Positions 29,179-60,230 of a stretch of DNA of 64,000 nt are shown in pieces. The notes below the pieces were generated by a model, which saw only the letters and a program-made list of their open reading frames with translations, had not been told where the DNA came from and ran no database searches. Source of the DNA: Desulfatiglandales bacterium (GTDB lineage: Bacteria; Desulfobacterota; DSM-4660; Desulfatiglandales; Desulfatiglandaceae); assembly GCA_963662465.1 (NCBI GenBank), contig OY759599.1, positions 5,664,001 to 5,728,000 of the forward strand, written 5' to 3'. A program made the translations under genes and the position numbers. How positions within the stretch are numbered: the first letter of the stretch is position 1; each line of letters starts with the position of its first letter.

Positions 29179-30304
29179 TGAGAATCCCTTTTACTAATTT
29201 TTCAATTTCTGAAAAACGCTTGATGACTCGAGTCTTGTCACCTGTTGCTTGTGAAATTGCTGAGATAAAGGCATCGTCTGTTCGGCACAAATTTGCAAAT
29301 TTTTCTAAAACCAAGGCGCCGTTTTTTATCAGCGTACTTCTCTCCTCGTCAGATCGATTTGCTAAAGCAACCGCCCAAATTTCAAAGATCGATTTATTAA
29401 TTGGCTTTCTTCTTTCCGGATACTGATCTGCTTTTCGGAAGGCCCAGTTTCCAAAAATCTTTTTCGAGGTCCGCATTGATTCTCGGAATGACCCCTTAAT
29501 AGAGATAAGCTCTTTTTCGTTTTTTTGTTCAATTTTATCCATTGAATCATTCATGAATGATTCAAGGTCGGGGGAATAATCCACTGGAGGAGTAATATAG
29601 AATGCCACAAAACGGTTAATAAATTCCCTGTCGAGCATTCTTTTGGGATTTATTTTATTTTCGGTGGCGACTTTGAATTCATTTAGGTTAGCTAGTTCAT
29701 GTATGAATCTTGACGAAACCCCCTGGTAAAGAGCGTGTCTGATTTCTTGTTGTTCTAAAACTAAACCACCCGTATTAATACGTCGGAAGATATTATATTT
29801 CACTTTCTTTGGTGTTCCAGGGTTGATTATATAAGCCGTTACCTGAGTTTGGTCGATAATTCTTTTAAGCGGTCTTTCAAGGTCGGTATATTTTTTTCTC
29901 TCAAGGTCTTTTAAAAATTCAAGTCCTGTTAAACGAAGTTTTTTATCTACTATGAAATTCTGTATACAACTTAGTCGTTGCAAGCCGTCAACGACTAACC
30001 ATTTGTTGGTATCCTCAGCATCAAAATAAAATGCCGGCAACGGGAACTTAACCAAAATTGATTCAATTAACCGGCTCTGTTGAACTGGCGACCATAAATT
30101 ACCACTCCGCTGAAAATCAGGATTCATATCAATCTCAGATGGAGACTCTTTCAGCATATCCACTAAGTTTGAAATTGTTGGAAATTCGCGTGTGATATTG
30201 ATTTCAGAAGGATTGAACGGCTCACGCATCAATTCAGACCCGGTATCTTCCTCTTCGACTGGAATTTCCCTATATAATTCAGGATTTTCAGTATTGTTTA
30301 TCAT
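29168..30304 (-). CDS. DUF262 (ParB/GmrSD-like) protein (NsnA-like)
   Basis: PDFQR, QSRLIESIL...PLPAFYF, VVDGLQRL, IFRRINTGG..L..QEIR. Confidence 0.9.
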   Translation of the reverse strand: MINNTENPELYREIPVEEEDTGSELMREPFNPSEINITREFPTISNLVDMLKESPSEIDMNPDFQRSGNLWSPVQQSRLIESILVKFPLPAFYFDAEDTNKWLVVDGLQRLSCIQNFIVDKKLRLTGLEFLKDLERKKYTDLERPLKRIIDQTQVTAYIINPGTPKKVKYNIFRRINTGGLVLEQQEIRHALYQGVSSRFIHELANLNEFKVATENKINPKRMLDREFINRFVAFYITPPVDYSPDLESFMNDSMDKIEQKNEKELISIKGSFRESMRTSKKIFGNWAFRKADQYPERRKPINKSIFEIWAVALANRSDEERSTLIKNGALVLEKFANLCRTDDAFISAISQATGDKTRVIKRFSEIEKLVKGILNDQ

Positions 30305-41272: not shown

Positions 41273-44200
41273 TTAATCGTTCCAAAGCGTTTCCATGAGG
41301 GGCTCATAAAGCTTTTCGGCCAAGATTTCGAAACGGCCGTTTTCAGCCTGCCAAAGGGCGTCAAAATCCGGGTAACATCGTTTTAAATAGACCCCGTCCC
41401 TGTACCCCAGTTCTCCGGGAAAATGGTAGCCATCCCCCTCATAGGCTTTTCGGGCGGCCTCCCATGCCTTTTGCGGGGCGTCTTCGCCTTTGTTGGAAAT
41501 CAACGTTTTCAGATAAGTCAGGGCTGTTTTTGCCGTCACGGGAAGGGGTTGTGAAAGCCCATGCCACCAGGTCGTTATCATCTCGGCCAGCCATTCACCA
41601 GCCTTTCCCTGATCCAGGGGGGGCAATTGCGCCAGACCATCCGGCGCCACCAGGATACTGGTGAGCGTCAATCCCCCGGCACATCCCGCCAGGTGTTTGA
41701 CCCAGAGGCCCACCAGGCTATCCGGGCGTGAAACCCTGTTTTTAGCATCCAGGATATCTTTGGGATAAAATTCCCAGCGGGCATACTCGGCAGCCGTTGT
41801 TGCGGCGGATGTTCCAGGGCTCGCCCCCCGTAAACCGTCCAGCCAGTCTTCCAGCATTTCGCAGTCGCACCCTTCGATGCCAATGGGAATACCAATTTCC
41901 AAAGGGGAACAGGGATGGAGATAACGCGCCGCCAGACCGTGATAATGTTCCAGCATGCGAAGGACCGGTTCCGTGAGTTTTTCCGCTGACAATTGCCCGA
42001 AACCGCCCGGCGGCAATTCTCCGGTGCGCTGTAGCCGCCGGGCTGCCCGGTGAACAGCTTCGGCACTTTCGGATGCGCGGACCGCCAGACCAGCGTTCAA
42101 TAATATGTTCCCAAGGTTAAAGGGCGCGAGCCCATCCAGGGCAAAGGGTTCCCGGTTGTGGGAAACGACGCCGGTGTCGTCAAAGTAAACGTTCAGTCGC
42201 TCATTAAAAAAGCCTTTTACCGGATTTTTCAAAAACCGGATCAATGGGGTCAACGCCAGACGGCTCTCCACACGGGCCGGTGAAAGGCTGCCCTGATCCG
42301 GCGTGTGATCTCGCGATGCCAACATTTCCCGCCATTCCCGGGCATATGTGAACAAATCCCGGGGGCCACCGGGCAGAAAATAGGCCTTGCTAAAGGGCTG
42401 CAGGGGGTGCGGGCAAGTCAGCTGATCCAGCAGATCCCGAGTGTCGCCCGTCGCATTCCCGCCCGGGGGGATATCCTCAACCTCCCAGCCGCCCGCCAGA
42501 TAATCTCGCAACTGAGACACCAGCACCGAAGGCATCCGCTCACTGTTGTCCGTCACATTACGTGCGATGTAACTGATATAGAGTTTTTCGCGTGCCGACA
42601 GCAGCGCCTCCAGAAACAGGTATCGGTCGTCTTCCCGGTAGGAACGGTCTCCCGGTCGGTAACGACCGGAAGCGGCCATCAAATCGAAATCCATTGGATG
42701 AATGCTGCGGGGGTATTCTCCATCGTTCATCCCCAGAAGACAGACTACTTTAAAGGGAATGGCCCGCATGGGCATGAGGGTGCAGAAATTGACCATGCCC
42801 GCCAGAAAACGCTGTGACAGGCTCCCATCCTTCATGGCGCCCAGCACAACATCGCGCACCACCGGCAGGGTCAGGGGGGCTTCCAGTCCGGCATCAGTAC
42901 AGGCCCTTTCCCAGGCTTCCAGGACCGTGTCCAGAAGGCGCCGAGTCAGTTGATCGTCGCGGGTGGTAGGCAGAAAAAAATCGGTCATTAAGGCCGCCAT
43001 ACGCGCAATCCAGTCCTTTGGGGGAGCGGGTTTGCCGAGGGTCTGCCGGTATTTTTCCAAACGATCAAGGATCGTGTGCAAAGAGCCCACAAGAGCGGCT
43101 TCCAGCCCTCCCACTTCGTCATAGGGTTCAATGTCCCGCCAGGGTTCGCCCGACCCCACGGCATATCCCAGCAACATGCGTTTCAAACCGAAGGCCCAGG
43201 TGTTTTGCCCAAAGCCGGGCGGTAAATCAAAGACCGTCCGTTGCCGTTCATCGAGCCCCCAGCGGATGCCCGCGCCGTCGATCCACCGTTGTAATTGGCG
43301 CACATCATTTTCCCCAAGGCCGAAGCGGTCGCGAAAAGCGGGCGCTTGCAGGAAATCCAGCAGATCACTTTGCGTCATGCGCGAGCCAGGCAGTTGGAGC
43401 AGCTTCTCCAAGGCCTGCAGCATGGGAAGACCGGCCCGGTCCGGCCTGTCGGCGATGGTGAAGGGAATAAACCGTGAATCCTGCCGAGGGACATTTCCGA
43501 AAACGGATTCGATATGCGGCGTGTAGGCATTCACGTCAGGGGCCATGACGATAAGGTCTTTGGGCTTTAGCCCTTTGTTTCGGTTGAAGAGGTCCAGCAG
43601 TTGGTCCCGCAGAATTTCCACTTCCCGTTGACGGCTGTAGGCCAGCTGAAAGCTGATGGAGCGATCATTAGGGGATATTTTCGCTTTGTTTTGGCCGACG
43701 CCGGGCAGCGGCTCTAATTCAAGGATCGCCTGCTGGACCTGCTGCAACAAAGACGCCTTGAGATCTTCCGTCACAAAATCGTTAAAAAGATCAATTTGGG
43801 CAAAGCTGTTCCGGTACGACTCGGGCTGATCATATCCATACAACAGACCGATATAGTCCCGTCCCTGTTTTCCCCAGGAGGCCAGCAACGGATTGACATG
43901 CTGGTGCAGAGATTCCGGACTCATGTCTTTTAGAATGGGGCCTTTGCCGGCATGGCGCGCCTGTTCGATGCGCAGCAGGTCTCGGTCTTCAATGATGTCG
44001 GCCCAGTAATACCGGCAGGGGTTGTGAACAAAAAAAAGAACCTGGCTGTGTCGGGAGAGGGCATGCAATGCTTCCAGGGCCTGTTTCGGCAGGGTGCTGA
44101 TGCCGAAAACCATCACGCGGCGGGGCAGGGAACCCGGCCGTTTTGAAAGGACGCGGGCAGATGCCAGAAAGCGTCGATGTAAACTGGAACGGCTGGTATC

Positions 44201-44809
44201 TCTTTCAGATGCGGGGACATCGGACTGGATCCGGCGCCACAATTCCGCCTGCCAGCCTTGCCCCGGCGGCAGGGGGTCCGGTTTTCCATAAACAGTTTGA
44301 AGCTGGTCCCGGCCGAGGGTCCAATCCTCCAGCCAGTCGGCCCTGTACACTTGATACTGGTCATACAGGTCCGCCAGGCGGCAGGCCAACTGGTATTGTT
44401 TGCGCAAATCAGGATCATCGGACAAAAATCGGGCAAGGGGCGAAAAACCGTTTTCCGCGGGTAACAGGGGCAGCAACCGCATCAACCGCCATTTCAGCCG
44501 CTCTTTGTCATAGGGGGATTCCAACGGAATAGCATTGTCTCCCAGAACCGCCCGATAGGCCTTCCATAGAAAGCGCGCGGGCAGCTCGAAAGACACGGCC
44601 GCACTGATGCCGCACCCCTCATTTTCAGCCAGCGCCAGCTTGAGCCATTGGGCCATGCCGTTGCTCTGTACAATAAACGTTTCGTTTTCAAGGGGCGCAA
44701 GGGGATGTTTGCAGACCCATGAAACGGCAATTTTTCGCAAATCTTCCATACGATTGGAATGGATGACGGTAAAGCCGGGCGGCAATTCCGTTTCTTTTCG
44801 ATCAATCAT
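41273..44809 (-). CDS. recC: Exodeoxyribonuclease V gamma subunit
   Basis: HSNRMEDL, VQSNGMAQWLK, LADLYDQYQVYR.DW, NPCRYYW.DI, NPLLASWGKQGRD, CTLMPMRAIPFKVVCLLGMNDG, DDRYLFLEALLSAR, HPLQPFS. Confidence 0.96.
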   Translation of the reverse strand: MIDRKETELPPGFTVIHSNRMEDLRKIAVSWVCKHPLAPLENETFIVQSNGMAQWLKLALAENEGCGISAAVSFELPARFLWKAYRAVLGDNAIPLESPYDKERLKWRLMRLLPLLPAENGFSPLARFLSDDPDLRKQYQLACRLADLYDQYQVYRADWLEDWTLGRDQLQTVYGKPDPLPPGQGWQAELWRRIQSDVPASERDTSRSSLHRRFLASARVLSKRPGSLPRRVMVFGISTLPKQALEALHALSRHSQVLFFVHNPCRYYWADIIEDRDLLRIEQARHAGKGPILKDMSPESLHQHVNPLLASWGKQGRDYIGLLYGYDQPESYRNSFAQIDLFNDFVTEDLKASLLQQVQQAILELEPLPGVGQNKAKISPNDRSISFQLAYSRQREVEILRDQLLDLFNRNKGLKPKDLIVMAPDVNAYTPHIESVFGNVPRQDSRFIPFTIADRPDRAGLPMLQALEKLLQLPGSRMTQSDLLDFLQAPAFRDRFGLGENDVRQLQRWIDGAGIRWGLDERQRTVFDLPPGFGQNTWAFGLKRMLLGYAVGSGEPWRDIEPYDEVGGLEAALVGSLHTILDRLEKYRQTLGKPAPPKDWIARMAALMTDFFLPTTRDDQLTRRLLDTVLEAWERACTDAGLEAPLTLPVVRDVVLGAMKDGSLSQRFLAGMVNFCTLMPMRAIPFKVVCLLGMNDGEYPRSIHPMDFDLMAASGRYRPGDRSYREDDRYLFLEALLSAREKLYISYIARNVTDNSERMPSVLVSQLRDYLAGGWEVEDIPPGGNATGDTRDLLDQLTCPHPLQPFSKAYFLPGGPRDLFTYAREWREMLASRDHTPDQGSLSPARVESRLALTPLIRFLKNPVKGFFNERLNVYFDDTGVVSHNREPFALDGLAPFNLGNILLNAGLAVRASESAEAVHRAARRLQRTGELPPGGFGQLSAEKLTEPVLRMLEHYHGLAARYLHPCSPLEIGIPIGIEGCDCEMLEDWLDGLRGASPGTSAATTAAEYARWEFYPKDILDAKNRVSRPDSLVGLWVKHLAGCAGGLTLTSILVAPDGLAQLPPLDQGKAGEWLAEMITTWWHGLSQPLPVTAKTALTYLKTLISNKGEDAPQKAWEAARKAYEGDGYHFPGELGYRDGVYLKRCYPDFDALWQAENGRFEILAEKLYEPLMETLWND

Positions 44810-46345: not shown

Positions 46346-47317
46346 TTATGCAAACACCTGTAAATCCGCAAAACACTTGAGCCCACAGAGGGACCGAGTG
46401 TTTTTCACCGCGGCAATAACCGCCCTTTCCATGACCCGCGCCGCCAGAAAACCCACCACGCTGAGGTCTGCCAAAATGGTCCCGGTTGACATGGCAAAGA
46501 TGGTGTCGCCGTCATACATGGTGTGGGCCGGTCGAATGCTGCGAGCATAACCGTTTTGCGCCATGGAGGCCAGCTTGGTGGCTTCCGTTTTGGTGAATCG
46601 GGCGTTGGTGGCAATCACCCCAATGGTGGTATTGCCGCTGAAAACATTCTTTGGGTTGGAAAATGCCTTGAGCATAATGGCTTCCGTGTCCTCGATGGTT
46701 TGCAGGTCTTCCGACAGAGGACCAGCCAACCGCTCACCCGTTTCAGGGTCTATGACATGCCCCAAGCAGTTCACCGCAACGAGGGCGCCCACCTTCAGCG
46801 TTCCCTCCTGAAGGGCATAACTTCCCAGGCCCCCCTTCATGGCCCGCGCCATCCCATGAATTTTTCCCACGCAGGCACCGGCACCGGCCCCCACATTGCC
46901 CTGGTTCAACTGGCGGGTTTCGGCGTTTATACAGGCCTGGTATCCCATTTCCTTGCCGGGCCGAATTCTGTGATCCCCTAAGGCCAAGTCAAACAGTGCG
47001 GCCCCGCACACAACGGGCACCCGGGTCACCTGCACGTCAAAACCGATCTCCCTTTCCTCCAGGTACTGCATGACACCGGCAGCCGCGTCAAGACCGAAGG
47101 CGCTTCCCCCGGCCAGAAGAACGGCGTGCGCCTGCTGCACCAGATTGACCGGGTTCAACAGATCCGTCTCCCGGGTTCCCGGAGCCCCACCCCGCACATC
47201 CACACCCACGGCAGCGCCCTCTTTGCTGATCACGACGGTAACGCCGGTGGGACCCGTCAGGTTCTGGGCATGACCCACTTGCAGGCCTTCAATTTTTGTG
47301 AATTGGATTTCTTTCAT
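46346..47317 (-). CDS. P1/S58 family peptidase (DmpA-like)
   Basis: GVDVRGGAPGTRETDLL.P, LAGGSAFGL, GNVGAGAG, GNTTIGVIATN, PAHTMYDGD; likely start MKEIQF. Confidence 0.92.
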   Translation of the reverse strand: MKEIQFTKIEGLQVGHAQNLTGPTGVTVVISKEGAAVGVDVRGGAPGTRETDLLNPVNLVQQAHAVLLAGGSAFGLDAAAGVMQYLEEREIGFDVQVTRVPVVCGAALFDLALGDHRIRPGKEMGYQACINAETRQLNQGNVGAGAGACVGKIHGMARAMKGGLGSYALQEGTLKVGALVAVNCLGHVIDPETGERLAGPLSEDLQTIEDTEAIMLKAFSNPKNVFSGNTTIGVIATNARFTKTEATKLASMAQNGYARSIRPAHTMYDGDTIFAMSTGTILADLSVVGFLAARVMERAVIAAVKNTRSLCGLKCFADLQVFA

Positions 47318-47436
47318 GGCTGTTGGATATATCATGCCGAGAGCCTGTTGATCAAGAGAATTGCCCTCACTTAGGGTTGCCCTTGTGACATTTCGGCTCA
47401 CTGTGCTACAATGCTTCCAAAAACGACAGGGTGCTT

Positions 47437-50400
47437 ATGTTTCATCGAATCCTCAAATGGGTATTGTGGCTGACGGGCCTGCTGCTCACGATGCTGATCC
47501 TCGTGGCGGCAGGACTCTTTTTTACGCCGAACATGGTTTCCACGGACTGGTTTCGCCACCAGTTTGAAACCCGGGCCTCCAATGCACTTAAGCGGCAGGT
47601 CACCGTCAAGGAACTTCAATGGACCTGGAAAGAGGGGATCAAGATAGAAGGGCTTGAAGCGATCGATGCCCCCGAATATGCCCAAGCGCCCATCCTGTCC
47701 ATTGACTATATCCTTTTTTCATTTGATTTCCAACCGACCCGCAAACGCCTGTTCATCGATCTGGAAGTGGATGGCCTGAGGGCACATCTCATTCGAGAAA
47801 AAGACGGTCGCACCAACCTGGCGGCATGGCTGTCCCAGCTTAAACAGCCTCGGGAAACCACGGAACCCGCCCACAACGAACCAAGTAAAAAGAAGCCAAC
47901 CCCCTTTATCCTGCCCGGAGATCTTGAAGCGAAAGTCCAATTGAGCCATGCCCATATCCGGGTGGATGATCGGATGGAAAACCGGTCCCTCCATATTCAG
48001 GATGGGACGTTCAAGCTGGAAATCCCTTCGCTCCTTTCAAAACCCGTGACCCTTGTCCTCAGTTCCCGGCAGGAGATAGATGGAAAGATACTGCCGCCCC
48101 TGGCATTGACCGTTCATGTGAATCAACTGGTGAATGAAACCCATACCCTAAATCCGCAAACCGCCATAATTCAAGTCAACGGTGAATTTCCAGGGCTCAA
48201 GGTGGCCGTAAAAGGTTCACTGGCGCAAAGAGGCCTGGAAGGCAAGGTGGCGATTGATTTCATTCCCCTGGTAAAAACGGTACAGGCCTTTTTGCCGAAT
48301 ATCATTCCTCAACTTTCCGGCCGGGTTTTGCTTCAGGCAAAGGCCCGGTCTGAAAAGGAGAATGCCATCGCTTTTGACATGGTTCTTTCCGGCGAGGACA
48401 TCCTGGCCGCAGGCGGACCATTGAAAGAGAAACAGGTGGGCCCCCTTTCCTTCAATATCAGCCAGAAGGGAAGCGCCGACCTCGATGATAAAGCAGTAAC
48501 CCTTGCCGGCGGTGAAATCCGGTTCATGGAACACTGCGGTCTATTTTGGGAAGGCCGCATAAAAATGGAGGAGAAAGCAGGCGCGGATGTGAACCTGACC
48601 CTGCGCAGGGTGAATTTCGATTTAAATGAAATTCAACGCCTGGCCAAAAGGTTCATCCCCAAAGACATTCATGTGACGGGGTTAAACAATGCAGGTCGCC
48701 CCGATTTTGCTATCAATGAAATTCACCTGGTCGGCATGCTGCCTAAAGGAGAGGCACGGTTGTCCATAAAAGATCTGGACGTGAACATCTCAAGTCTGGA
48801 TCTGGCGCTTTCGGAAAGAACGCTGAAAGTCAAGGATTTGACGCTTCAAATTCCGGAAACGACGGTTCAACTAAAAAAACTGTTTCCCCAGGTACTGGAA
48901 ATGCGCGCTGAACTGGGCGTAAAAAAGGTTGGCCTATCGGGAAAACAATCCTTTTTCCTCGAAGATGGCTTGACCCTGAAAGGGCATATGAAAGAGGTAC
49001 GGCTCAACCAGCGCAATCCTCTCATGCTGGATGTGGGGGGGCTGGAAGCGGACATTCAATCGGGAGACCTTCTAACGCTTCACCTGATGGGCGCGGCTGT
49101 GGATTCCGGCATAAAAGAATTTCAAATGGAGGGGCGCCTTGGGGTAGATCTCAAGCAAGTCATGGATCTGACTCCCGCCGCCTTGAAGCCGAAAGGGGAC
49201 TTCACCGGCCGCGTGGAAACGGAATGGCGCCTTCAAGGTCGACGGCCGGACGCAACAGAACTGGCAGGATTAACCGACAACGGACTCCCCCTTGAAAAAC
49301 GGCTGCAACAGATGGCCTTTCTGGAAAAACTGAATCTCAAAACACAGTTTATCAATATGGGGATAACACTCCCCCTGAAATCCGGAGAAACCCTGTCGGT
49401 CCTGAGTATCCACTCCCCAAGCCCTTTTGAGATCAGTCTCCTTGACGGCATGAAATCGGTCTTATTTGAGGGAAAAATCAACCTTGATAAAATCCAGGCC
49501 CTTCCCGCCCTGGGGAAGCTGAAGCCCCCCCAGTCCGCCGTTTTCTCAGTAAAAGGGGTGGGGCGGGATCTCAACTCCCTGGAGTTGTGGGAAACCTTTA
49601 CCGTGACCCCCCTGGCCATGGAACAGACCCTTGAACTGTCTCTGAACAAACTGAATCGCCTGCTGAGAAAAAAAGAGAAACCGGACCTTACCGCCATTTT
49701 AAAGCTTATGGAAGCGAAAATCCAAGCCGGCGTATCGATCAACTCTGGTCCCGGATTGGCCCCCTTCAGCAAAGGGCTCACCCTTAAAGGGCCTCTAAAG
49801 GGGCGTCTGGAACTGGAATTACGAGGTGGAAAAACAATTTCGGCCCAAACCTTCCTTGAAAGTGAAGGTCTGAACGTAACACTGGGGCCGAAGTTTACCC
49901 TCAACAATTTAAAAACCCATCTTCAACTGGAGAAAACTTACGACCTGGCCTTTGGACCCCCGATCGTTTCACGGGAAAACACAAAAGCCCTCTCCCGAAC
50001 GGTGCTTCAGCCCGGAATCACGTCAAGGCCTGACCTTGGATTCAACAATTCCCTTTCCCAACGGTTGGTGGAGGACCTTCGAGGTCGACTGTCCCGAAAA
50101 CCCTCCCTGTCCTTTGATTCCGCATGGCTTGCATCGGGGCCCTTTCCCATGGAAATCAACAATGCCCAACTGCAGATGCGGCTAAACCCATCCCTCCCTT
50201 CCGTGGACTATTTTCAGATGGATATCATGGGGGGAACCCTGTTGGGGGAACTGGGGATTTATGAGCGCAATGATCTTTATTTCCTCCACATGGACGGGGC
50301 TTTTTCCGGTCTGGATGTAGAGACAAGGCATGTGGAGACAAGGCATGCCTTGTCTCTACGGGGGCGGGATTCCGAGGACCTCCCGAATCAAAAGGCGGGG

Positions 50401-50853
50401 GGTGAAGACACCCGAATTTCGGGCCAGCTGTCCCTGGAAATGCCCATGGACCCCAATACCCGGACCGTGATGAACAACGTGGACGCGGTGTTTCGCCTCA
50501 CCCACATAGGACCCCGAACCCTGGAACGGCTCCTTTATGCCATGGACCCCCATGAAAACAACGAAAGCATTGTAAAACAACGGGCCCTGCTGAGAAAGGG
50601 GACGCCCCGGTGGATCGAGGTGGCCATTCGGCATGGGAATCTGTCGCTGACCGGAGATGTGACGGTGGGCGGTTCAACGATACATCTGCCCCCCATCAAA
50701 CGGTTGAACGTGACGGCCCTTCCCATTCAAAAACGAATTCAAAACCTGGCCAATACCATGGTTCCCCTGGTAAAGGGCCTGAAAATCCTTTCCGCGGACA
50801 CGCTTCGGGTGGATCAGGGCGGCGGCATAGATTTTACGGAGGCATCTCAATGA
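47437..50853 (+). CDS. Large AsmA-like (YdbH/TamB-type) beta-rich envelope protein
   Basis: N-terminal TM anchor, AsmA-like start (ASNALKRQV.V..L.W, LIREKDGRTNL), ~1100 aa of alternating beta-strand pattern. Confidence 0.7.
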   Translation: MFHRILKWVLWLTGLLLTMLILVAAGLFFTPNMVSTDWFRHQFETRASNALKRQVTVKELQWTWKEGIKIEGLEAIDAPEYAQAPILSIDYILFSFDFQPTRKRLFIDLEVDGLRAHLIREKDGRTNLAAWLSQLKQPRETTEPAHNEPSKKKPTPFILPGDLEAKVQLSHAHIRVDDRMENRSLHIQDGTFKLEIPSLLSKPVTLVLSSRQEIDGKILPPLALTVHVNQLVNETHTLNPQTAIIQVNGEFPGLKVAVKGSLAQRGLEGKVAIDFIPLVKTVQAFLPNIIPQLSGRVLLQAKARSEKENAIAFDMVLSGEDILAAGGPLKEKQVGPLSFNISQKGSADLDDKAVTLAGGEIRFMEHCGLFWEGRIKMEEKAGADVNLTLRRVNFDLNEIQRLAKRFIPKDIHVTGLNNAGRPDFAINEIHLVGMLPKGEARLSIKDLDVNISSLDLALSERTLKVKDLTLQIPETTVQLKKLFPQVLEMRAELGVKKVGLSGKQSFFLEDGLTLKGHMKEVRLNQRNPLMLDVGGLEADIQSGDLLTLHLMGAAVDSGIKEFQMEGRLGVDLKQVMDLTPAALKPKGDFTGRVETEWRLQGRRPDATELAGLTDNGLPLEKRLQQMAFLEKLNLKTQFINMGITLPLKSGETLSVLSIHSPSPFEISLLDGMKSVLFEGKINLDKIQALPALGKLKPPQSAVFSVKGVGRDLNSLELWETFTVTPLAMEQTLELSLNKLNRLLRKKEKPDLTAILKLMEAKIQAGVSINSGPGLAPFSKGLTLKGPLKGRLELELRGGKTISAQTFLESEGLNVTLGPKFTLNNLKTHLQLEKTYDLAFGPPIVSRENTKALSRTVLQPGITSRPDLGFNNSLSQRLVEDLRGRLSRKPSLSFDSAWLASGPFPMEINNAQLQMRLNPSLPSVDYFQMDIMGGTLLGELGIYERNDLYFLHMDGAFSGLDVETRHVETRHALSLRGRDSEDLPNQKAGGEDTRISGQLSLEMPMDPNTRTVMNNVDAVFRLTHIGPRTLERLLYAMDPHENNESIVKQRALLRKGTPRWIEVAIRHGNLSLTGDVTVGGSTIHLPPIKRLNVTALPIQKRIQNLANTMVPLVKGLKILSADTLRVDQGGGIDFTEASQ
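50317..50359. repeat. GTAG palindrome inserted in frame in a CDS
   Basis: GTAGAGACAAGGCAT-GTGGAGACAAGGCAT-GCCTTGTCTCTAC; encodes VETRHVETRHALSL. Confidence 0.9.
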
Positions 50854-51452
50854 AAAAGCGCACATTCTTAAAGGCTCTGTTTCTGATCACAATCCTGTGG
50901 ACCCTGGTCGGCTGTACCCTGGCCAAAGTGGACGTCAATGTGGTCAGCGAGCGAACGGCCCTGGAAAATCAGGTTTTGGGTTCCTACAACGCCCTTTCCG
51001 ATGATGTCCTTCTGGTGGCCTCGGTCAGGGGCGTGGACCCTTCCGGCAAAATCAAAACGCCGCCTCGAAAAAGCCGTGAATATCAAAATGCCGTGGAAGC
51101 CATGGAGACCCTGGCGTTTCATGGGGATGATGTGGACGCCTTTAAGCGCCTGGGGTGGGTGGGGGAAAACAACCTTGGGTTGCTGACCCCCTTTCCCATG
51201 AACAAGGAAAAAGCACCCGATGATCTTCAGGCATTTGCGGCCCGGTATCCCCAGGGGGAGTTCGTCTCGGTGGTGGAGCAGGTGAACCGTGCCCGGGAAG
51301 TGGTCATGATGCGGGTAGTGGAAACCAATGCGGATTTTACCGAAAAAGACCTGCCCCGGATCAAAGGGGTATTTGCCAAACTCAACCGTGAAAATGCGCT
51401 GCCCGGTGAGCGGGTGCAGGAGGAGGACGGGTCGTGGACGATGATGCCTTGA
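50850..51452 (+). CDS. Lipoprotein with DUF1318 (YdbL-like) domain
   Basis: ATGA overlap with the upstream stop; lipobox TLVGC; ERTALENQVLG; FK..G.VGENN.G.L, V.QVN.AR, A.PGE.VQ..DG.W. Confidence 0.8.
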   Translation: MKKRTFLKALFLITILWTLVGCTLAKVDVNVVSERTALENQVLGSYNALSDDVLLVASVRGVDPSGKIKTPPRKSREYQNAVEAMETLAFHGDDVDAFKRLGWVGENNLGLLTPFPMNKEKAPDDLQAFAARYPQGEFVSVVEQVNRAREVVMMRVVETNADFTEKDLPRIKGVFAKLNRENALPGERVQEEDGSWTMMP

Positions 51453-54400
51453 GGGCGGAGGTCAGAGGTCAGAGGCCAGAAACCAGAGGTCAGAGGACAG
51501 AGGTCAGAGATCCGACTTCCGACCTCCGACTTCTGACTTCCGTCATGGTGGTTATGGCGGTTTTGCTTTCGTGTGCGGGACCCAAAACCGTTGGGCCGGT
51601 TGAAAAAACATCGGAGGCGGTTGATTCGGTGGTTTTTGCCCAAAGGGAGAAAGATCGAAAAGCGCCGCTGCGCCTACCCGTGAACCTGCCCGTTCAAGTG
51701 AGCTTCGAGGCGGATCCCGTGCGGTATGGTGCATTGTCGGGAGACGGAAATACCCTGGCCTATGTTCTGGAGAATCAGAGCGGATCATCCCTTTGGATCC
51801 GACCGAGAGATTTCACCCTTGGGACTCTCCCTCAAAAACGGCTTGAGGGCATGGGTAGAATTTCGGCGCCGGCTTTGTCGCGGGACGGTTCAAGCATCGT
51901 TTTTGTGGCCACGGATCATGATGCCAAGGGCGATATCTTTTTGCTTTCAACCCAAGGGGGATCAGACCCCAAACGACTTACCGGAAGAGACACGGCGGAC
52001 GGGGCGCCTACTTTTTCACCGGACGGCAACCGCATCTATTACCACCGGTTGTTAACGGAAGAAATCTTACCCCACCTGGCCTATATGGATTTGAGCGCCG
52101 GCGCCAAAGGCCCTGAAACCCTTCGAGAGGGGGCCTTTCCTTCCATCTCCCCGGATGGTGAGCGTCTGGCCTTTGTGTCCTTTGAAAAGGATTCCGGCGG
52201 CGACATCCAGGTTCTTGACCTGAAAACCGGGAAAGTGACGCCGGTCACCGCCGGTTCTCCGCAGGATCTGTATCCCACCTGGTCCTTGAATGGAAAATGG
52301 ATCTATTTTTCCCGCTTTGACCTGGATACCAATAAAGACAACGCCGTCATTTGGCGGGCTGCCCCTGATGATGCCGGTCTTTGGGCCTACCCCCTCACAT
52401 CGGAAACCTTTTCCGCCTACCAGCCCATGGCCACGTCATCGGAGTTGCTGTTTCTGTCAAACCGGAACGGCACGGCAAATCTCTGGCGGCTCCCTTCGGG
52501 AGGAGAAATTCCCATCGGCGAAGACGCACCAATCCAGATGGAACGGGCCCGAATCCTGGCCGCCCAAATACCTCAAAAGGATGCCCTGGCCCTATTGGCC
52601 TATTATAAGGTGCTGGAAGACTTCAGTCGGGAGATACACTACGGCGGAAAAACCCTTTATGAGATCGGTAAGCTTTACCAGCGCATGGGGCGAGAGAAGC
52701 AGGCGGTTCAAACCTATGAACGACTGATGAAAGATTTCGGAAACGCCTATCCCGAAAAAGCCCTGGCCGCCATTCGGCTGACGGAGATTCAGGCGGAGAA
52801 TGCCTGGAAAGCGGCGCCCACTGATTTTAAGCGAAAACAGATCCTGTTGAATGCTCAAAATCGCATCCAGGCGCTTTTGAAAACCGGAATCCCTTCACCA
52901 TCGGACACTGATGCTCTGGATTCGGCGCGCATCCGGGCAAGGGGGTTGATGGTTCAAGCCCAATTGCTGGAGGAATTGGACCCAAACCCCGATTCCCTTG
53001 GAAACGCCATTGCGCTTCTGGACCAGGTTGCCGGCATGAAGAATGTGGCATCTGATTTGAGGGCGGAAGCCATATTTCAAAAGGCGCGGATCAACAGCCG
53101 TATGGGGCAGGCCCAGGCGGTAATACCCGCCTACCTTTCCATCGTCACAACATACCCCGATACCCCATGGGCCGACGCCGCGGTAGAGCGGATCATCGAC
53201 AATTTCTTGTCGGATTCTTCTGGAAATACGGTGGAAACCCGGATTCAAGCCCTGGCCCGGCTGGCGGAAACCCATCAAGAATCAGTCCCCAAACTGGCCA
53301 TGGGCGCCTTTAACCGCATGGGAGATGAAGCCTTTGCGGCGGGGGACCGGCAGCAAGCCAAACGATGGTACCGGGAAGTCCTGAACCGGTATGCGATGTC
53401 AACCGGCTCTCCCACAAAAGAGAACCTGCCCCCCACACAGGTGGCAGCAGCCCGGCTGGCCCTGGCTGAAATCCTATACCGGGAAGAGCTCTTCCGCCAA
53501 GCCCTGGATCTCTACGAAACGGAAATGGCCCATCGACCCTATGAAGACCGACTCTATACCCTTGCCCGGGCCGCCTATATCCAAAAATCCCTGGCAGCAG
53601 CCGATTTTCTGTTCAATTTGGGCGAAATTCCGGCGGCCCGCAAACGCTATGGGGATCTCATTCGAGAAAATCCTGACCTTGTTCAGGCCCATCGCGGGTA
53701 TATCAAATGCGCGGCCGCCATGAAACAGATCGACCCTTGTCTGGAACGCTACCGGGCGCAGCTGAAAACAGATCCCGAAAATCCAATCCTCCTCTATGCC
53801 GCGGGCCTCTGCCTCACCTACCGGGAAGGGAAAAAAGCCCATGCCGATGCACGTACGCTCATCACAAAAGCCATTTTGAAACAGGGGCAGACCGCTTACT
53901 TCCACCAGACCCTGGGATACCTCTTCGAGGTATCGGAAACGGTTTATGGTGAACCGGGAGGACTTGAAAAAGCCCTTTTGAGCTATCAGAAGGCCTATTT
54001 TTTAAACAACCCCGAACAAGACCCCCAAAACAGCGCCAACCTGGCCCTCAATCTGGGGAACATCCATTTTCTCCTGGGCCAGTATGGCAGAGCCCTGACA
54101 CGGTACCAGGAGCGGCTTGAATCAAAGGCGCCCTTTGATCATGAGGATACGGAAATCCTCTTTTACCGCCGGTTGGGGGGAGCCGCCTTTCAGATGAATG
54201 ACCCGGCCGTATCCATCGACGCCTACACCCGGGCACTCCAGCTCATCGATGACCGCATCGACCCCGGACGTCCGTCGGAACTCATGGGAAAACTAAATAC
54301 GTTCATTTTCGACCGGATACTGACCCCGGCCTTGAAGCGCTCGAAAAATGCCAAAGATATTGAGGCCATGACCCAACGCCAGCGCCGTATCCATAAAGCG

Positions 54401-57400
54401 TTATTCCATGCCACCGGCCAACCCCATAACGCCCCGCCTGATCCGAGATGGGAATCCTACCGGAAAACCATGGAAACCATCATGGCCGAACAGGAAAAAC
54501 TGATCGGGGACATCGCCCCCCTGATCACCGAAAAAAGGGACGAAACCCCGCAAACGCTTTCTTTCATGCTGACTCGGGCCCGAGACGCCCTTCAATTTCC
54601 GAACCGGATGATTGAACTCAAGGCTGAAATACTGGACCGGCTGGGACTGGCCTGCCAGGAGGCGGGCAAATGGGAAGAAGCGACCGACGCCTTTGAAAAG
54701 GCCTTTCAACTGAACCAGGGCCTGGGCCGGTTAAAGAACCTGGCCGCCAACCGGCGATCCGTGGCCTACAATACCTATATGGCGGCAGGGGATCGATCAG
54801 GAAAGGAAAAAGAGCGTTTGCTCAAAGACGCGCTCAAGCAATTTGAAGAGATGCAAGGCCTGTTGGATCAGTACGGGGTGGTGGACCCGAGCGAAAAAAA
54901 GGCGGGGAGTACATCTCGGGCAGGGGATGGGGAGAGTGCGCTGCTGAAGGTTTCCCTGGATCTGGCCCTGGATAAAACCACCGGTTCCGAGGCTGTTTAC
55001 GGGTTCAGCCCCACCCAGGAAAAACGCCTGGCCCAGGCCTTTATTTCCCGTATTGAAACGGAACTGGGCATGCTGGAAAAGGCCCAAACAGCCATTGATG
55101 GACAACTCCTGCCCTATCACCAGGCAAAGACCGTCAGGGATCAGGATCTCTACGGCGTTTCCCTTCTTTCTCATCGGGACGGGCAGCTGCGGTTTGCACT
55201 GCAGGAACCCAAAAAAGCCTTTTCATCTTTTCAGCGTTCCGCACAACTGGCCTTGAAACTCAAGAACCCGGCGAGCGCCGCCATGAACCTGGAGAACATG
55301 GCTTGGGCCATGGGTAGAATCTCCACCCGGGATCCTGATTATCCATCTCTGAGAGCCGGGCTCGCCACTCTTGATCGAGAGACCATCAGGTTGCTGGAAC
55401 GGGCCCAAGGGGTCCTGGACCCATTGACCCTTCCCCACTATCACAACCGGATGGGGGCTTTGGCGCTGAAACCGGTTTCAATAGACGAAGGGTTGTCCCC
55501 TGAAGGAGCGGCCAGGGACATGATGCTTCTTTCGCGGGCCGGCGCCCATTTTACCCTGGGCCTTACCGCATTGAAAAAAACCGAGGGAAAACGGGGAAAA
55601 TCCGACCGAAAGGCACTGGCACTGGCAGCAGCCCTTCAGTTAAACATGGCCCATGTGGCTCTCGATTTTGATGAAAGAGAAACCGCGAAAGCCCACGCAA
55701 AAAGCGCCCTGGAAATTGCCGGAAGGGGCCTGCTCCCCCAATATGAATGGCGCGCGCTGGTCATCCTGGGGGATCTTACCGCGGCGCTGAAATCCCTTTC
55801 ATCGGCGCCACTGGCAGATGCCGGTTGCGCTCCCGGCGAAATCCGGACCGCCTTTGCCCCTATGGTGCTTTCACTGATTCAAAAGGAAAAGGCGGAAGAC
55901 GCGTTGAATTTGCTTGAGCGGTTATCGGAACTGGAGCGGTTTCACCGCATGGCCCCCATGGTGAGTGCCCAGGTTTCACCTTCGGAACAGGCTCGCCTGC
56001 TAGAGATCTTTCCCCGGCTCATGACCCTTTTGCGCCTCAGGGAACAACTGAAAGGGGCTGAAGAGGAGGAAAAACCCCACCTAGCGGAGCGGATCCGGCA
56101 GGAGCGGACCCTTCTGGATGAAGATTCAGGCAAAAAAGAAAATACGGTTAAATTGCCGGCCCTGCTCACCCGATCGGAAACTCTGCGGGAACAATTGGTG
56201 TTGTTGCTGGGTTTGGCCTGTGAAATTGAGCGGGTGGCAACCCTGGCTGTTGTCAATTCTTCTGAAGAGAGTGATAACCCACAAAAGACGCTATACCGGG
56301 AACTGATGACCCTGTACCCTCAAATATGGAAGGAAATTAAGCGGGTTTCGGCAAGGGAAGGCACCCCCGGCGTGGCGGCCCTTTTCGGCCCGGACCCCGT
56401 GGAGGCCATCGATCTCATGGAAAACCTGCCCAAGGGGGGGCATGCCGTACGGCTCTTTGAAAAAGACTCTTCCGGAAAGGGTTGGACGGTCTTTGTGGTA
56501 ACAGAAGATGATATTTCCGTAGAGACAACGACCTTGTCTCTACAGCCCCCCCCATCCACCCTCCTCATTTACGAAGACCCGTGGGTATTGCCTTCCGGAC
56601 AATGCCCCGTGGCCCTCAGCGCCACCCATCTGGTTCGATCGGTGGCAAATCGAAAACCCTTTAAACGCCGGATGGTGGAACTGGCAGGCCCTTACAAACT
56701 CCCTTCGGATTTTGATGTGACCCTGTTGCCCGCATCAGCGGATCAGGAGGCGATTTCAGAAGCCCTGCCCGGGGCACAGGGGCTTTTGCTGGGCGGTCCT
56801 GTTTATACGGCTAACTCGGTTCCCACAAGACCGGGAGAGGTTCCCGTATACCAGCCGGCCATGGGGCTGGACCAAGGCCGAACCCTTCCCCTGCTAACCC
56901 TCTTCGACCGGCTTTCAGATGTTTCCCTGGCCATGCTCCCCCGGGCTGACGCCGAAGAAACCTACATGTTGGGGCACCTCTTTTCCCTGATGGGGGTTCC
57001 CACCCTGCTGCTGCCCCGCAACCCTTCAAACCCTTCTCCGGTGGTACCCCTTTTTTTTGAAGCCTATGGCAAAAATCCGGTCTACAACGCCCTGATGACG
57101 GCCCTCAAAAAAACAGAAGGTCGGAGGACACTCTGGGTTAACCTGGGGTACTGGGGCATGACCGAGGCGGAGGCCCTGATTCTGGCCGAACGTCGGTTCA
57201 AGGAATATGTTCAAAAGGGCATTTCGGCGTTTAAGAAAAAAGAGCCCGTTTATGCCCTGGTTCTTTTTGAAAAAGCGCTGATGGTGGCCCGGCAGGTTCA
57301 AGTGCTTTCGCGCTATGAACCCCAACTTCTGGTGTATGCCCGTGAAAGCGCCTATGCCGGCGGCCGTTACGAAAGTGCGGTTCAACATGCCCGGGATCTA

Positions 57401-60046
57401 GTCAAATTCTGGGCCCGAAAGAAGCCCGATTCCAAGGATCAGGCGGAGGCCCTGGTGAAACTCGGATTGGTTCTGGCCCGCATAGAACAATACGACCGGT
57501 CTATTGCCGCCCTGGAAGAAGGGACCGAGATCATGGCCAATCTGGAACTGGCGGATTTACAGGTGGCGGCCTTAAATGACCTGGGGGTGGTCCTGGAAAA
57601 CGCCACCCATTACAACCGGGCCCTGACGCAGTTTCAAACCGCGGCGGATCTCAGCCGAAACCCGGACAAAAAGGGGGCACTGGCCCGACAGCACATGCGC
57701 ATGGGTCGGGTTTATGACCTCAGACTGAGCCAATATCCAAAGGCAAAAATCCACTACCTGAAAGCTTGCGCCCTTTATGAAACCCTGAACGACACCGAAA
57801 ACATGGCCCAGGCCCTCCTGGATGCCGGTCGATGTGACCGGCTGCTGGGGAATTTCAAAGAGGCCGAAAACCAGTATGAAAAAGCCCTGGCGCTTCTTGA
57901 CAAAGGAAAAGAAGGGTTGAACGCCGAAAATCAAATCATGGCGGGCATCCTAATGGAACAGACCAATAACCACTGGTTTCAAGCCCGTTACCAGGATGCC
58001 TGGAAGGGGCAACGGCAGGTTCACGAAATGGCCGTGAAAAATCGGTGGACACTGGAAGAGGTCAACAGCCTGAACACCGCCGGTCTGATCTGGTGGACCC
58101 TGGGAAATCACCCTTCGGCCCTGCGCCAATTGGAAGAAGCCCTGGCCCTGGCCAAAACCCTTCACGTCAGAAGAGATGAAGTCGCCGCCACCCTCAACAA
58201 TATGGGGCTGGTATATCGGGACGCAGGCGATTACGAAAAGGCCCTGGCGGCCCTGGAACAGGCCCTTGCCATCGACCGCAACATCAACTCCAAATGGGCC
58301 ATTGCCTATGATCTTAAGAACCTGGGGTTAACCCGACTGGCCATGGGAGAAGCGGAAAAAGCCCTTCCCCTGTTTCAGGAAGCACTGGAACTCGCCCGAC
58401 AAATCGGAAACCGCATTAATCAGGCCAAGATCCTGGTGGCATACGGCGAGGCCCTGATGACCCTGGATCGGTCTGAAGAGGCCAACGCCCGGTTCACTCA
58501 AGCCCTTGATCTTTCCCGCCAAATGGCCCTTCGCGAAGTGGAGTGGCGGGCCCTTTTCGGGTTGGGCCAACTTCAGCTCAAAGAGGGAAAGAAAGCCGAA
58601 GCCAGGGTGTTGCTGGAATCCGCCGTGAAAGTGATTGAAGGCATGCGGGCCGAGATCAAGCTGGATCAGCTGAAGGATGGGTTTATCAATAATAAAATGG
58701 CCGTCTATGAAACCCTGGTGGGTCTGTTGGTGGATATGGGGCATAATTCAGAGGCGTTTTACGTTGCGGAACGCTCCAGGGCCCGGAACCTCATCGATCT
58801 TTTGGGCAACCAGCGGCTCACCCTCCATGGGGCCGTCAATCAGGATCGCTATGATACGGAAAAGCGTCTCAAAACTCAGATGGCCGAGTATGAAACCCTG
58901 ATGGCCCAGGCCGCGGACGCAAATGAAAAAGCCGTTTATCAAAAGGCATTGGATCAAACCCGGGACAAGCACCGGGATCTCATGCTGGAAATTCAGCTCA
59001 AAAACCCCGAACTGGCTTCCATCCTGTCGGTGGATCCCCTGACCCTTTCACAGGTGCAAAAGTTCCTGAAACCGGAAACCGCCATCCTGGCCTACTATGT
59101 TCTTCCCGATGAAATACTCTGCTGGTTCATCACCCGCGACGGGATGGAACTTTTTAAAACCCCTCTGGGCCGCAAAACCCTGGCCCAAAAGGTTCTGGAC
59201 TATCGGCGCACCCTTCAAAACCTGGAGCCTCCCGAGGCCGAGGCCGGGGAACTCTACACATGGCTGCTTGCCCCCTTGAAAGACCGGTTGAAAACCGTCA
59301 AAACCATTGGGGTCGTGCCCCACCATATCCTTCATCATCTATCCTTTGCCACCCTGTTTGACGGAAAACAATACCTGGTGGACCGTTTTCCCCTGTTCTC
59401 CATCCCCAGCGCAAGCGTGCTTCGCCATACCCAGCAGACCCTGCCGCCGGAGAAAAACACAAAGGTTCTGGCCGTGGGCAACCCGGATCTAAACAATCCG
59501 GCCCTCGCCCTTCCCTTTGCGGAAAAAGAGGTGTCTACCATCGGGTGGAACTTCCCCCATGTAACCGTACTCACGGGAAATAAGGCGACGGAGGGGTGGG
59601 TGGTCCGCAACATATCGGATTTCGGCATCATTCACCTGGCTTCTCATGGGACGTTCGATCCCGTCAACCCGCTTTTTTCCGCCATCAAACTGGCGCAAGA
59701 CGGTCAGGACGACGGCGATCTTCGGGCTTCCGAGGTGTTCGGCCTCGATATCCGGGCAAACCTCGTGATGCTGAGCGCCTGCCAGACGGGCCTGGGCAAA
59801 ATCACCAGCGGCGATGATGTGATCGGCATGAACCGGGCCTTTCTCTATGCAGGCACCAACGCCGTCATGAGCAGCCTGTGGCGGGTGAGCGATATCTCAA
59901 CAGCCCTTCTGGTGAAGCAATTTTACAGGGAATACCAAAACCGGCCCAAGGCCGAAAGCCTGAACAGGGCCATGCGCCATGTGAAAAACCGATACCCCCA
60001 CCCTGGTTACTGGGGGGCCTTCGTGCTGGTGGGGGACTATCGGTGA
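51434..60046 (+). CDS. Giant lipoprotein: TolB-like PD40 propeller, many TPRs, degenerate CHAT, TPRs, active CHAT (caspase-family) domain
   Basis: GTG after AGGAGG; lipobox VLLSC; PALSRDG/PTFSPDG/PSISPDG/PTWSLNG repeats; TPR arrays; C-terminal LPFAEKEV, IIHLASHG, LVMLSACQTGLG, SSLWRVSD, HPGYWGAFVLVG. Confidence 0.9.
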   Translation: MDDDALRAEVRGQRPETRGQRTEVRDPTSDLRLLTSVMVVMAVLLSCAGPKTVGPVEKTSEAVDSVVFAQREKDRKAPLRLPVNLPVQVSFEADPVRYGALSGDGNTLAYVLENQSGSSLWIRPRDFTLGTLPQKRLEGMGRISAPALSRDGSSIVFVATDHDAKGDIFLLSTQGGSDPKRLTGRDTADGAPTFSPDGNRIYYHRLLTEEILPHLAYMDLSAGAKGPETLREGAFPSISPDGERLAFVSFEKDSGGDIQVLDLKTGKVTPVTAGSPQDLYPTWSLNGKWIYFSRFDLDTNKDNAVIWRAAPDDAGLWAYPLTSETFSAYQPMATSSELLFLSNRNGTANLWRLPSGGEIPIGEDAPIQMERARILAAQIPQKDALALLAYYKVLEDFSREIHYGGKTLYEIGKLYQRMGREKQAVQTYERLMKDFGNAYPEKALAAIRLTEIQAENAWKAAPTDFKRKQILLNAQNRIQALLKTGIPSPSDTDALDSARIRARGLMVQAQLLEELDPNPDSLGNAIALLDQVAGMKNVASDLRAEAIFQKARINSRMGQAQAVIPAYLSIVTTYPDTPWADAAVERIIDNFLSDSSGNTVETRIQALARLAETHQESVPKLAMGAFNRMGDEAFAAGDRQQAKRWYREVLNRYAMSTGSPTKENLPPTQVAAARLALAEILYREELFRQALDLYETEMAHRPYEDRLYTLARAAYIQKSLAAADFLFNLGEIPAARKRYGDLIRENPDLVQAHRGYIKCAAAMKQIDPCLERYRAQLKTDPENPILLYAAGLCLTYREGKKAHADARTLITKAILKQGQTAYFHQTLGYLFEVSETVYGEPGGLEKALLSYQKAYFLNNPEQDPQNSANLALNLGNIHFLLGQYGRALTRYQERLESKAPFDHEDTEILFYRRLGGAAFQMNDPAVSIDAYTRALQLIDDRIDPGRPSELMGKLNTFIFDRILTPALKRSKNAKDIEAMTQRQRRIHKALFHATGQPHNAPPDPRWESYRKTMETIMAEQEKLIGDIAPLITEKRDETPQTLSFMLTRARDALQFPNRMIELKAEILDRLGLACQEAGKWEEATDAFEKAFQLNQGLGRLKNLAANRRSVAYNTYMAAGDRSGKEKERLLKDALKQFEEMQGLLDQYGVVDPSEKKAGSTSRAGDGESALLKVSLDLALDKTTGSEAVYGFSPTQEKRLAQAFISRIETELGMLEKAQTAIDGQLLPYHQAKTVRDQDLYGVSLLSHRDGQLRFALQEPKKAFSSFQRSAQLALKLKNPASAAMNLENMAWAMGRISTRDPDYPSLRAGLATLDRETIRLLERAQGVLDPLTLPHYHNRMGALALKPVSIDEGLSPEGAARDMMLLSRAGAHFTLGLTALKKTEGKRGKSDRKALALAAALQLNMAHVALDFDERETAKAHAKSALEIAGRGLLPQYEWRALVILGDLTAALKSLSSAPLADAGCAPGEIRTAFAPMVLSLIQKEKAEDALNLLERLSELERFHRMAPMVSAQVSPSEQARLLEIFPRLMTLLRLREQLKGAEEEEKPHLAERIRQERTLLDEDSGKKENTVKLPALLTRSETLREQLVLLLGLACEIERVATLAVVNSSEESDNPQKTLYRELMTLYPQIWKEIKRVSAREGTPGVAALFGPDPVEAIDLMENLPKGGHAVRLFEKDSSGKGWTVFVVTEDDISVETTTLSLQPPPSTLLIYEDPWVLPSGQCPVALSATHLVRSVANRKPFKRRMVELAGPYKLPSDFDVTLLPASADQEAISEALPGAQGLLLGGPVYTANSVPTRPGEVPVYQPAMGLDQGRTLPLLTLFDRLSDVSLAMLPRADAEETYMLGHLFSLMGVPTLLLPRNPSNPSPVVPLFFEAYGKNPVYNALMTALKKTEGRRTLWVNLGYWGMTEAEALILAERRFKEYVQKGISAFKKKEPVYALVLFEKALMVARQVQVLSRYEPQLLVYARESAYAGGRYESAVQHARDLVKFWARKKPDSKDQAEALVKLGLVLARIEQYDRSIAALEEGTEIMANLELADLQVAALNDLGVVLENATHYNRALTQFQTAADLSRNPDKKGALARQHMRMGRVYDLRLSQYPKAKIHYLKACALYETLNDTENMAQALLDAGRCDRLLGNFKEAENQYEKALALLDKGKEGLNAENQIMAGILMEQTNNHWFQARYQDAWKGQRQVHEMAVKNRWTLEEVNSLNTAGLIWWTLGNHPSALRQLEEALALAKTLHVRRDEVAATLNNMGLVYRDAGDYEKALAALEQALAIDRNINSKWAIAYDLKNLGLTRLAMGEAEKALPLFQEALELARQIGNRINQAKILVAYGEALMTLDRSEEANARFTQALDLSRQMALREVEWRALFGLGQLQLKEGKKAEARVLLESAVKVIEGMRAEIKLDQLKDGFINNKMAVYETLVGLLVDMGHNSEAFYVAERSRARNLIDLLGNQRLTLHGAVNQDRYDTEKRLKTQMAEYETLMAQAADANEKAVYQKALDQTRDKHRDLMLEIQLKNPELASILSVDPLTLSQVQKFLKPETAILAYYVLPDEILCWFITRDGMELFKTPLGRKTLAQKVLDYRRTLQNLEPPEAEAGELYTWLLAPLKDRLKTVKTIGVVPHHILHHLSFATLFDGKQYLVDRFPLFSIPSASVLRHTQQTLPPEKNTKVLAVGNPDLNNPALALPFAEKEVSTIGWNFPHVTVLTGNKATEGWVVRNISDFGIIHLASHGTFDPVNPLFSAIKLAQDGQDDGDLRASEVFGLDIRANLVMLSACQTGLGKITSGDDVIGMNRAFLYAGTNAVMSSLWRVSDISTALLVKQFYREYQNRPKAESLNRAMRHVKNRYPHPGYWGAFVLVGDYR
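51458..51542. repeat. Heptamer repeats, direct then inverted (hairpin-forming)
   Basis: Seven GAGGTCA-like units (51458-51506) then four TCYGACY units (51511-51538); same family as 17785-17854. Confidence 0.9.
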
Positions 60047-60230
60047 GGCATTGATCATCGTTCCGGTCACCCGGCAATAAATTGCCGACCTATTTTCTGT
60101 TGCCCCGATCTTTACAACCTGTAAAAAGCGCTGACATGTTTGTTGCGCCCATTTTCTGCTTTCCAGCCTTTTCATTCAAATAAATTCTATTATTACAACA
60201 ACATAAAGATCTCTAACCTCAACTTTCCAT

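Follow-up and report, generated by a model that had tools for sequence, protein, structure and literature searches.

A rare five-gene module in a Desulfatiglandales genome combines a candidate AsmA-like bridge with an exported CHAT protein

Three overlapping genes (A, B and C) in the 64,000-nucleotide window, the whole stretch of DNA that was analyzed, belong to a module of five genes that is split 3+2 in this genome. The remaining two genes, encoding an SH3b protein and an M48 peptidase, lie elsewhere on the chromosome. The reading that we favor, at a probability of roughly 45%, is that A and B form an accessory bridge whose assembly or turnover would be controlled by C acting as a gated periplasmic protease; the coupling of bridge and protease is drawn from genomics. 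The module consists of known parts in an arrangement that was not found in print. The original prediction for this locus described genes A to C; the pseudo-CHAT domain, the SH3b and M48 genes and the clade-limited lipobox of C were absent from it. Coordinates are given in Table 1.

Table 1. Genes of the module and features within them (window positions unless a contig or locus is named)
Feature	Position	Strand	Basis or remark
Gene A, encoding a 1,138-aa protein of the AsmA/DUF748 clan with a membrane helix at the N-terminus and a predicted long beta-groove	47437..50853	+	Pfam, hydrophobicity, model, relatives
Gene B, 200-aa lipoprotein, YdbL-like C-terminal half	50850..51452	+	DUF1318 hit, lipobox, profile comparison with YdbL
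Gene C, 2,870-aa exported propeller-TPR-pseudoCHAT-TPR-CHAT protein	51434..60046	+	Pfam, models, alignments
Signal peptide of C, lipobox LLSC (Cys47), n-region lengthened by 7-base-repeat element	51434..51574	+	
Long hairpin from heptamer-repeat element inside start of gene C	51453..51545	+	-46.6 kcal/mol, z -4.29
TolB-like (PD40) beta-propeller of C, residues ~80-360, approximate edges	51671..52513	+	PD40 2.7e-20; TIGR02800 2.8e-22, below cut-off
First TPR/helical array of C, residues ~380-1640, approximate edges	52571..56353	+	
Pseudo-CHAT of C, residues ~1670-1909, catalytic dyad not conserved	56441..57160	+	Model, Foldseek, alignment
Second TPR array of C, residues ~1911-2545, approximate edges	57164..59068	+	TPR_12, TPR_1, TPR_MalT
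CHAT protease domain of C, His2738 (59645), Cys2783 (59780)	59240..60037	+	PF12770 5e-61, 207 bits
Terminator-like stem-loop after gene C	60072..60087	+	Weak consensus match
SH3b and M48 genes belonging to the module, relocated	G000:C1:5417551-5418060 and 5416574-5417503 (L083:11575-13061)	-	~293 kb from A-B-C

The genome carrying the window is a single contig of 8.16 Mb. Genes A, B and C are co-directional; A and B overlap by 4 nt (ATGA) and B and C by 19 nt. Gene A was started at the ATG at 47437, with a GTG at 47431 as the alternative, while gene C starts with a GTG that has a GAGGAGG element 7 nt upstream. A contig from sequencing run X1 spans 46500-59620 with zero differences, but X1 may be the source sample and, thus, is not independent. 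The lengths of the open reading frames, the Pfam hits and the conservation in 160 fetched loci argue that the triad is not due to chance. The open reading frames match the three overlapping genes that had been predicted at these positions, and C carries the lipobox, PD40, TPR and CHAT features attributed to it, with the catalytic His and Cys where they had been placed. Here the triad is flanked by a divergent S58 peptidase gene upstream and a sensor kinase gene downstream, as identified by Pfam, and neither recurred beside related loci when neighbors within 10-kb flanks of 81 loci were clustered. Elsewhere in the window, a recC-like gene was seen at 41273-44809 on the minus strand, and the window has no further open reading frame as large as RecB next to it; two segments (26001-30000 and 8001-10000) have a low GC content of 38-43% compared to about 53% around them.

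Relatives of B were fetched as the best 80 of 107 genome loci and the best 80 of 192 metagenome loci; the two sets overlap, were chosen by likeness to B and include kin that are not independent. The loci include Desulfobacterota, Deferrisomatales, Nitrospirota, Nitrospinota and Magnetococcales, with the closest relatives in Desulfobacterota. Where enough flank was available, A was directly upstream of B in 68/70 genome and 56/57 metagenome loci, and C was directly downstream in 72/76 and 58/60, respectively. Three of the four genome exceptions for C (L065, L079 and L020) carry C close by or at another place in the genome, and the fourth ends 1.7 kb past B. The triad is conserved across distant bacteria, and none of the three outcomes that the original prediction named as refuting it was observed.

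Few genomes carry the module, and B and C are retained or lost as a pair. Full-length B (E < 1e-50) was found in 8 genomes of an even sample of 301 from the phylum. The middle region of C (E < 1e-12) was found in 9, namely the 8 with B and a genome of 86% completeness; this count disregards three additional partial hits that were weak (E 1e-7 or worse). Among 121 Nitrospirota genomes, B and C were each present in 2, and these were the same two genomes. B and C sit on different contigs with other neighbors in G020 and G060 and both are retained, and G304 has kept C though it is unlinked from B. Correlations of 0.83-0.87 between the pairwise identities of A, B, C and the SH3b protein were discounted as a sign of co-evolution because of shared ancestry.

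These distributions bear on the possibility that the genes are only co-regulated neighbors, with A and B an ordinary YdbH-type bridge and with C and the SH3b-M48 pair independent envelope proteases that share its promoter. Each part does come from a known family, and the cluster can split, as seen in this genome (G000), G132, G020 and G060. However, the joint retention or loss of B and C extends to genomes in which they are unlinked, and the other, commoner DUF1318 type, matched by the C-terminal half only and present in 55/301 genomes, comes without C. Mere neighborhood is, in our judgment, very unlikely.

The product of gene A agrees with the inner membrane-anchored, beta-rich protein of about 1140 aa that had been predicted. 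Its sole hydrophobic stretch is N-terminal and forms a helix (residues 2-34) in the structure model, which was built from 49 sequences (pLDDT 83, pTM 0.61) and continues in almost unbroken strands. Pfam matches to DUF748 (1e-12), YhdP (1e-6) and AsmA (1e-3) were all under cut-off, while AsmA passes the cut-off in two relatives of A, L116 and L127. The top Foldseek match was the bridge-like lipid transporter LPD-3 (E 5e-6, with a TM score of just 0.14), and residues 37-254 aligned to the N-terminus of Vps13 (Z 8.7, rmsd 6.0, 173 residues aligned). The sub-cut-off hits, the relatives and the Vps13 alignment place the first domain of A in the AsmA/Chorein-N type. ApoB and porins score equal to or higher than Vps13 on other parts of A, and apoB leads the VIA structural match lists together with porins and other generic curved sheets; taken alone, the structural match is modest. 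In a wide structural search, YhdP was not listed and TamB appeared at Z 7.0 only, which decides little for a model of 1,138 aa. Also, A is not detectably YdbH: the YdbH family (PF11739) had no match anywhere in the genome, and the profile of A against E. coli YdbH reached a probability of 12.6. A sequence search of the A and CHAT profiles against solved structures returned nothing. The AsmA-like fold class of A is supported, with the long beta-sheet, the helix and LPD-3 as best match agreeing with the fold foreseen in the original prediction, and a role in lipid transport would follow by analogy with the family.

Relatives of A range from 1,095 to 1,451 aa. Compared with most of them, A lacks 91 alignment columns before residue 509. 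An assembly error is an unlikely cause of this gap, since the relative L137 aligns to A over 28-1135 in one piece at a similar length, so that the short form is apparently common to both, and a diverged contig from X4 spans gene A at almost the same length.

Protein B is the DUF1318 lipoprotein that had been predicted. Its lipobox is LVGC with an invariant Cys22, DUF1318 is above the Pfam cut-off, and PF07027 was matched by 48/48 members. The C-terminal half matched YdbL (probability 93, E 3e-7) and the solved YdbL structure (E 0.014). Shortly after Cys22 there is a strand (residues 27-32) with hydrophobic residues at 27, 29, 31 and 32 in 48/48 rows, and this alternating strand is followed by a conserved helix (34-46). 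The invariance of the ERTALENQ motif in B is partly circular, as ERTALENQ served as a search pattern. In E. coli, YnbE is proposed to extend YdbH through strand augmentation (PMC11126948). The strand after Cys22 recalls this proposal and suggests a YnbE-like role, so that B may be likened to YnbE and YdbL in one chain. The YnbE family (PF13617) had no match at B, and the profile alignment covers the signal peptide only. Atlas searches gave DUF1318 and SH3 clusters only. Modeling A(780-1138) and B(22-200) as a complex gave a score of 0.00, which is evidence in neither direction.

The genome also encodes TamB, a further AsmA-type frame and, behind an anchored protein of 988 aa, a second DUF1318 lipoprotein; therefore, the A-B bridge would be an extra one. 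That second pair (L084:10882-14413, minus strand), whose 988-aa member is without Pfam hits and beside which no CHAT partner was found, is probably the commoner bridge pair.

Gene C begins in an unusual way. None of 200 shuffles was as stable as the hairpin formed by the heptamer-repeat element at its start. A 17-mer related to the repeat occurs at 8 other sites in the genome, the element is also present near window position 17797 (C1:5681797), and in close relatives the beginning of gene C is likewise extended by similar repeats. One could speculate that the hairpin reduces the output of C relative to A and B. The ATG at 51545 was rejected as an alternative start of C because C would then be without an n-region and the site lacks a Shine-Dalgarno sequence, and the start in L004 matches 51434.

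Export of C is conserved across the family, but lipidation apparently is not. An export-type hydrophobic N-terminus was found in 143/144 relatives, in line with the exported protein that had been predicted. The lipobox attributed to C holds here and in near relatives, yet the pattern was found in 29/144 relatives, mostly of the nearest clade, and 115/144 are without it; the scoring used a rough pattern that both misses and over-calls. In an alternative reading, A and B could move a lipoprotein or other acylated cargo to the outer membrane or surface, with C and the M48 peptidase processing it, or C could itself be a cargo that acts outside. Lipidation of C in this clade, as indicated by the lipobox pattern, is in favor of it. 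There is also a precedent in GspN, a beta-taco protein described as moving lipoproteins to the surface (PMC12802150), and signal-bearing TPR-CHAT proteins also occur near TPS secretion genes: a second such protein with intact dyad motifs is encoded near a TPS-domain exoprotein gene in this genome (L085:9922-12237, plus strand, and 15590-19522, minus strand). The many relatives without a lipobox speak against a role in export or maturation, as does the absence of any recurrent gene for a barrel, a secretin or a conserved cargo from the clustered loci, and we regard it as quite improbable.

The catalytic residues His2738 and Cys2783 of the C-terminal CHAT domain are kept in 47/47 aligned rows; the alignment left out four rows with cut or irregular ends, in which both motifs are present. 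Residues 1400-1960, which are blank in Pfam, were modeled as helical repeats and a CHAT fold (pLDDT 91, pTM 0.91), with DdvA and Csx29 as the leading Foldseek matches. Separase aligned to this pseudo-CHAT with Z 16.4 and an rmsd of 2.9 A over 232 residues. In 50 rows, neither a His-Gly nor an Ala-Cys is conserved on the strands equivalent to the catalytic ones, as assigned by a weak profile alignment. Comparison of the sequence profiles of pseudo-CHAT and CHAT gave a probability of 1.2 and E 0.044, and the identity of the pseudo-CHAT is based on the predicted fold instead. The two TPR arrays matched each other in profile comparison (E 3e-19), although any two TPR arrays may give such a value. 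The architecture of C probably arose by duplication of a TPR-CHAT unit.

Neighbor clustering revealed two more recurrent genes, one for an SH3b protein in 41 loci and one for an M48 peptidase in 39. The SH3b gene follows C in 37/44 testable genome loci and 20/29 testable metagenome loci, and it precedes A in three Magnetococcales loci. The HEXXH motif is intact in all 35 scorable M48 peptidases of the 39 members, and all five module products carry N-terminal export or anchor segments. In this genome, the relocated SH3b-M48 pair adjoins two DUF4351-type fragments, and the module is split in a like manner in G132 of the same family. In a tree of 47 rows, the relocated M48 groups among the operon-linked M48s, apart from those linked to CHASE2 genes (supports 85/87 and 94/82, the latter for the CHASE2-linked branch, with long branches flagged). 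The close SH3b type is present in 6/301 genomes, all within the 8 with B, while G020 and G060 have B and C without it. Some other neighbors were seen in passing. In G038, an SH3b-M48 fusion is encoded by a divergent open reading frame after C (L121:8223-9455, minus strand) with the zinc motif HETAH, and an unfused pair is found on another contig of the same genome. The region L083:19-8511 (plus strand) encodes a surface protein of at least 2,830 aa with 21 invasin/Big_1 repeats, many of them nearly identical. HerA-like ATPase, DUF2780 and DUF2959 genes lie upstream of A in nine Nitrospirales loci (L057, L064, L067, L069, L070, L072, L073, L077 and L082).

Distant SH3b proteins were found after a CHASE2 adenylate cyclase gene in 5 of 8 distant loci (L120, L128, L129, L131 and L134). 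In four of these five, an M48 gene and a FadL-type barrel gene come next, the barrel being confirmed by Pfam in two, and there is no CHAT gene. We found no paper describing this cluster. SH3b-M48 is thus a portable unit. The invariant arginine of the SH3b linker had been considered as a CHAT-specific cut site, but this was weakened because the [RK]G[LF] linker motif is kept in the CHASE2-linked SH3b proteins without CHAT.

The company of CHASE2 cyclases points to signaling. C might sense a periplasmic cue of foreign origin or damage, similar to the proposal for DdvA, and relay it through the SH3b protein and M48 peptidase in a signaling or anti-phage cascade, with A and B as a conduit or lipid cue. 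DdvA, the top Foldseek match for the pseudo-CHAT region, is described as regulating a defense island (PMC11506125), and the spread of the module is patchy (8-9/301 and 2/121 genomes). On the other hand, the 10-kb flanks of the 81 loci have no recurrent gene for a sigma factor, anti-sigma factor, kinase, cyclase or effector, PADLOC run on the five module proteins gave one generic TPR model match and no system-specific hit, and the conserved length and order appear unlike those expected from an arms race. We consider a signaling or defense cascade unlikely.

Control of a bridge by proteolysis is argued for by the adjacency and co-presence of the genes, the invariant dyad, the HEXXH motif and the export segments. 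In the favored mechanism, A would be anchored in the inner membrane and carry a hydrophobic cargo, most likely lipid, along its beta-groove. B would be an outer-membrane lipoprotein whose N-terminal strand may extend or cap the groove of A, and its YdbL-like half, homologous as seen above, would chaperone that strand. C would be a periplasmic scaffold and gated protease, in which the propeller, the TPR arrays and the dead CHAT may bind partners and the live C-terminal CHAT may be switched on allosterically, as described for separase and Csx29 (PMC11506125). The most likely substrate would come from the module, be it B, SH3b, M48 or C itself. Cleavage would serve to license the bridge, to remodel it or to take it away, and SH3b-M48 would provide a second step, acting in trans in this genome. 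Precedent for proteolytic control of such a bridge comes from E. coli, where the level of YdbL is reported to be critical, excess YdbL to be lethal where the bridge is essential, and free YdbL to be degraded by DegP in vitro (10.64898/2026.03.16.712125). Against proteolytic control stand the lack of a YnbE match in B and of a YdbH match in A, the weak structural matches of A, the distant SH3b-M48 pairs beside cyclases and the genomes G020 and G060 without the close SH3b type. Also, 2,870 aa is far above the needs of a simple turnover protease. A bolder version, which is possible though doubtful, is that the bridge is physically joined to a separase-like periplasmic protease, with the dead CHAT and TPR arrays reading the state or cargo of the bridge and the live CHAT starting a two-protease cascade through SH3b-M48.

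If this bolder version is correct, it would be, to our knowledge, the first proteolytic checkpoint on a bacterial bridge-like lipid transfer protein. The module bears on the assembly, gating and removal of AsmA-like bridges. The study of DdvA leaves the activating signal and the cleavage of its periplasmic CHAT unshown (PMC11506125). With a bridge and an intact CHAT in one inherited unit, the candidate substrates are few and a Cys-to-Ala exchange would be a clean probe, and the tandem of pseudo-CHAT and CHAT would be a new model for the gating of caspase-family proteases outside the cytoplasm. To the picture of the module, this copy contributes the pseudo-CHAT, a clade-limited lipobox and a natural 3+2 split; the split suggests that A, B and C must stay translationally coupled while SH3b-M48 can act in trans.

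We found no paper joining a CHAT domain with YdbH, and no description of the combination of bridge and CHAT in the literature outside most subscription journals and supplements; table S7 of the DdvA paper (PMC11506125) or large domain-architecture supplements could list C-type proteins. The closest known system to the A-B part is YdbH-YnbE-YdbL of E. coli, in which the gene for an anchored AsmA-clan protein precedes and overlaps that for a lipoprotein (PMC11126948; 10.64898/2026.03.16.712125). The module shares this layout and a YdbL-homologous domain, which is here in B. In contrast to the E. coli system, A has 1,138 aa compared to 879 for YdbH and does not match it, there is no separate ynbE since B joins the lipid anchor and DUF1318 in one chain, and the unit further includes a giant candidate protease together with the SH3b and M48 proteins.

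For C, the original prediction held that characterized CHAT proteases are mostly cytoplasmic, a view to be qualified since a periplasmic TPR-CHAT with a His-Cys dyad, DdvA of Myxococcus xanthus, already has a structural characterization (PMC11506125). DdvA is described there as a 991-aa transmembrane anti-sigma factor, whereas a cytoplasmic domain and a linked sigma gene are both lacking for C. Starting with a signal peptide and a propeller, and with no recurrent sigma gene among its neighbors, C does not belong to the DdvA type of anti-sigma factor, and it differs further by its two TPR arrays and additional dead CHAT. A helical repeat scaffold before a CHAT fold is common to C, separase and Csx29, with Z scores of 13-16 against the pseudo-CHAT region; the Csx29 model matched C at 3e-11, far under cut-off. 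Separase and Csx29 are cytoplasmic or nuclear with one CHAT, while C is exported and has two CHAT folds, the first without a dyad. Finally, the CHASE2-cyclase/FadL clusters share the SH3b-M48 pair, the linker motif and HEXXH with the module, but their M48 peptidases form a separate branch and their partners are a cyclase and mostly a barrel, compared to a bridge and a CHAT protease in the module.
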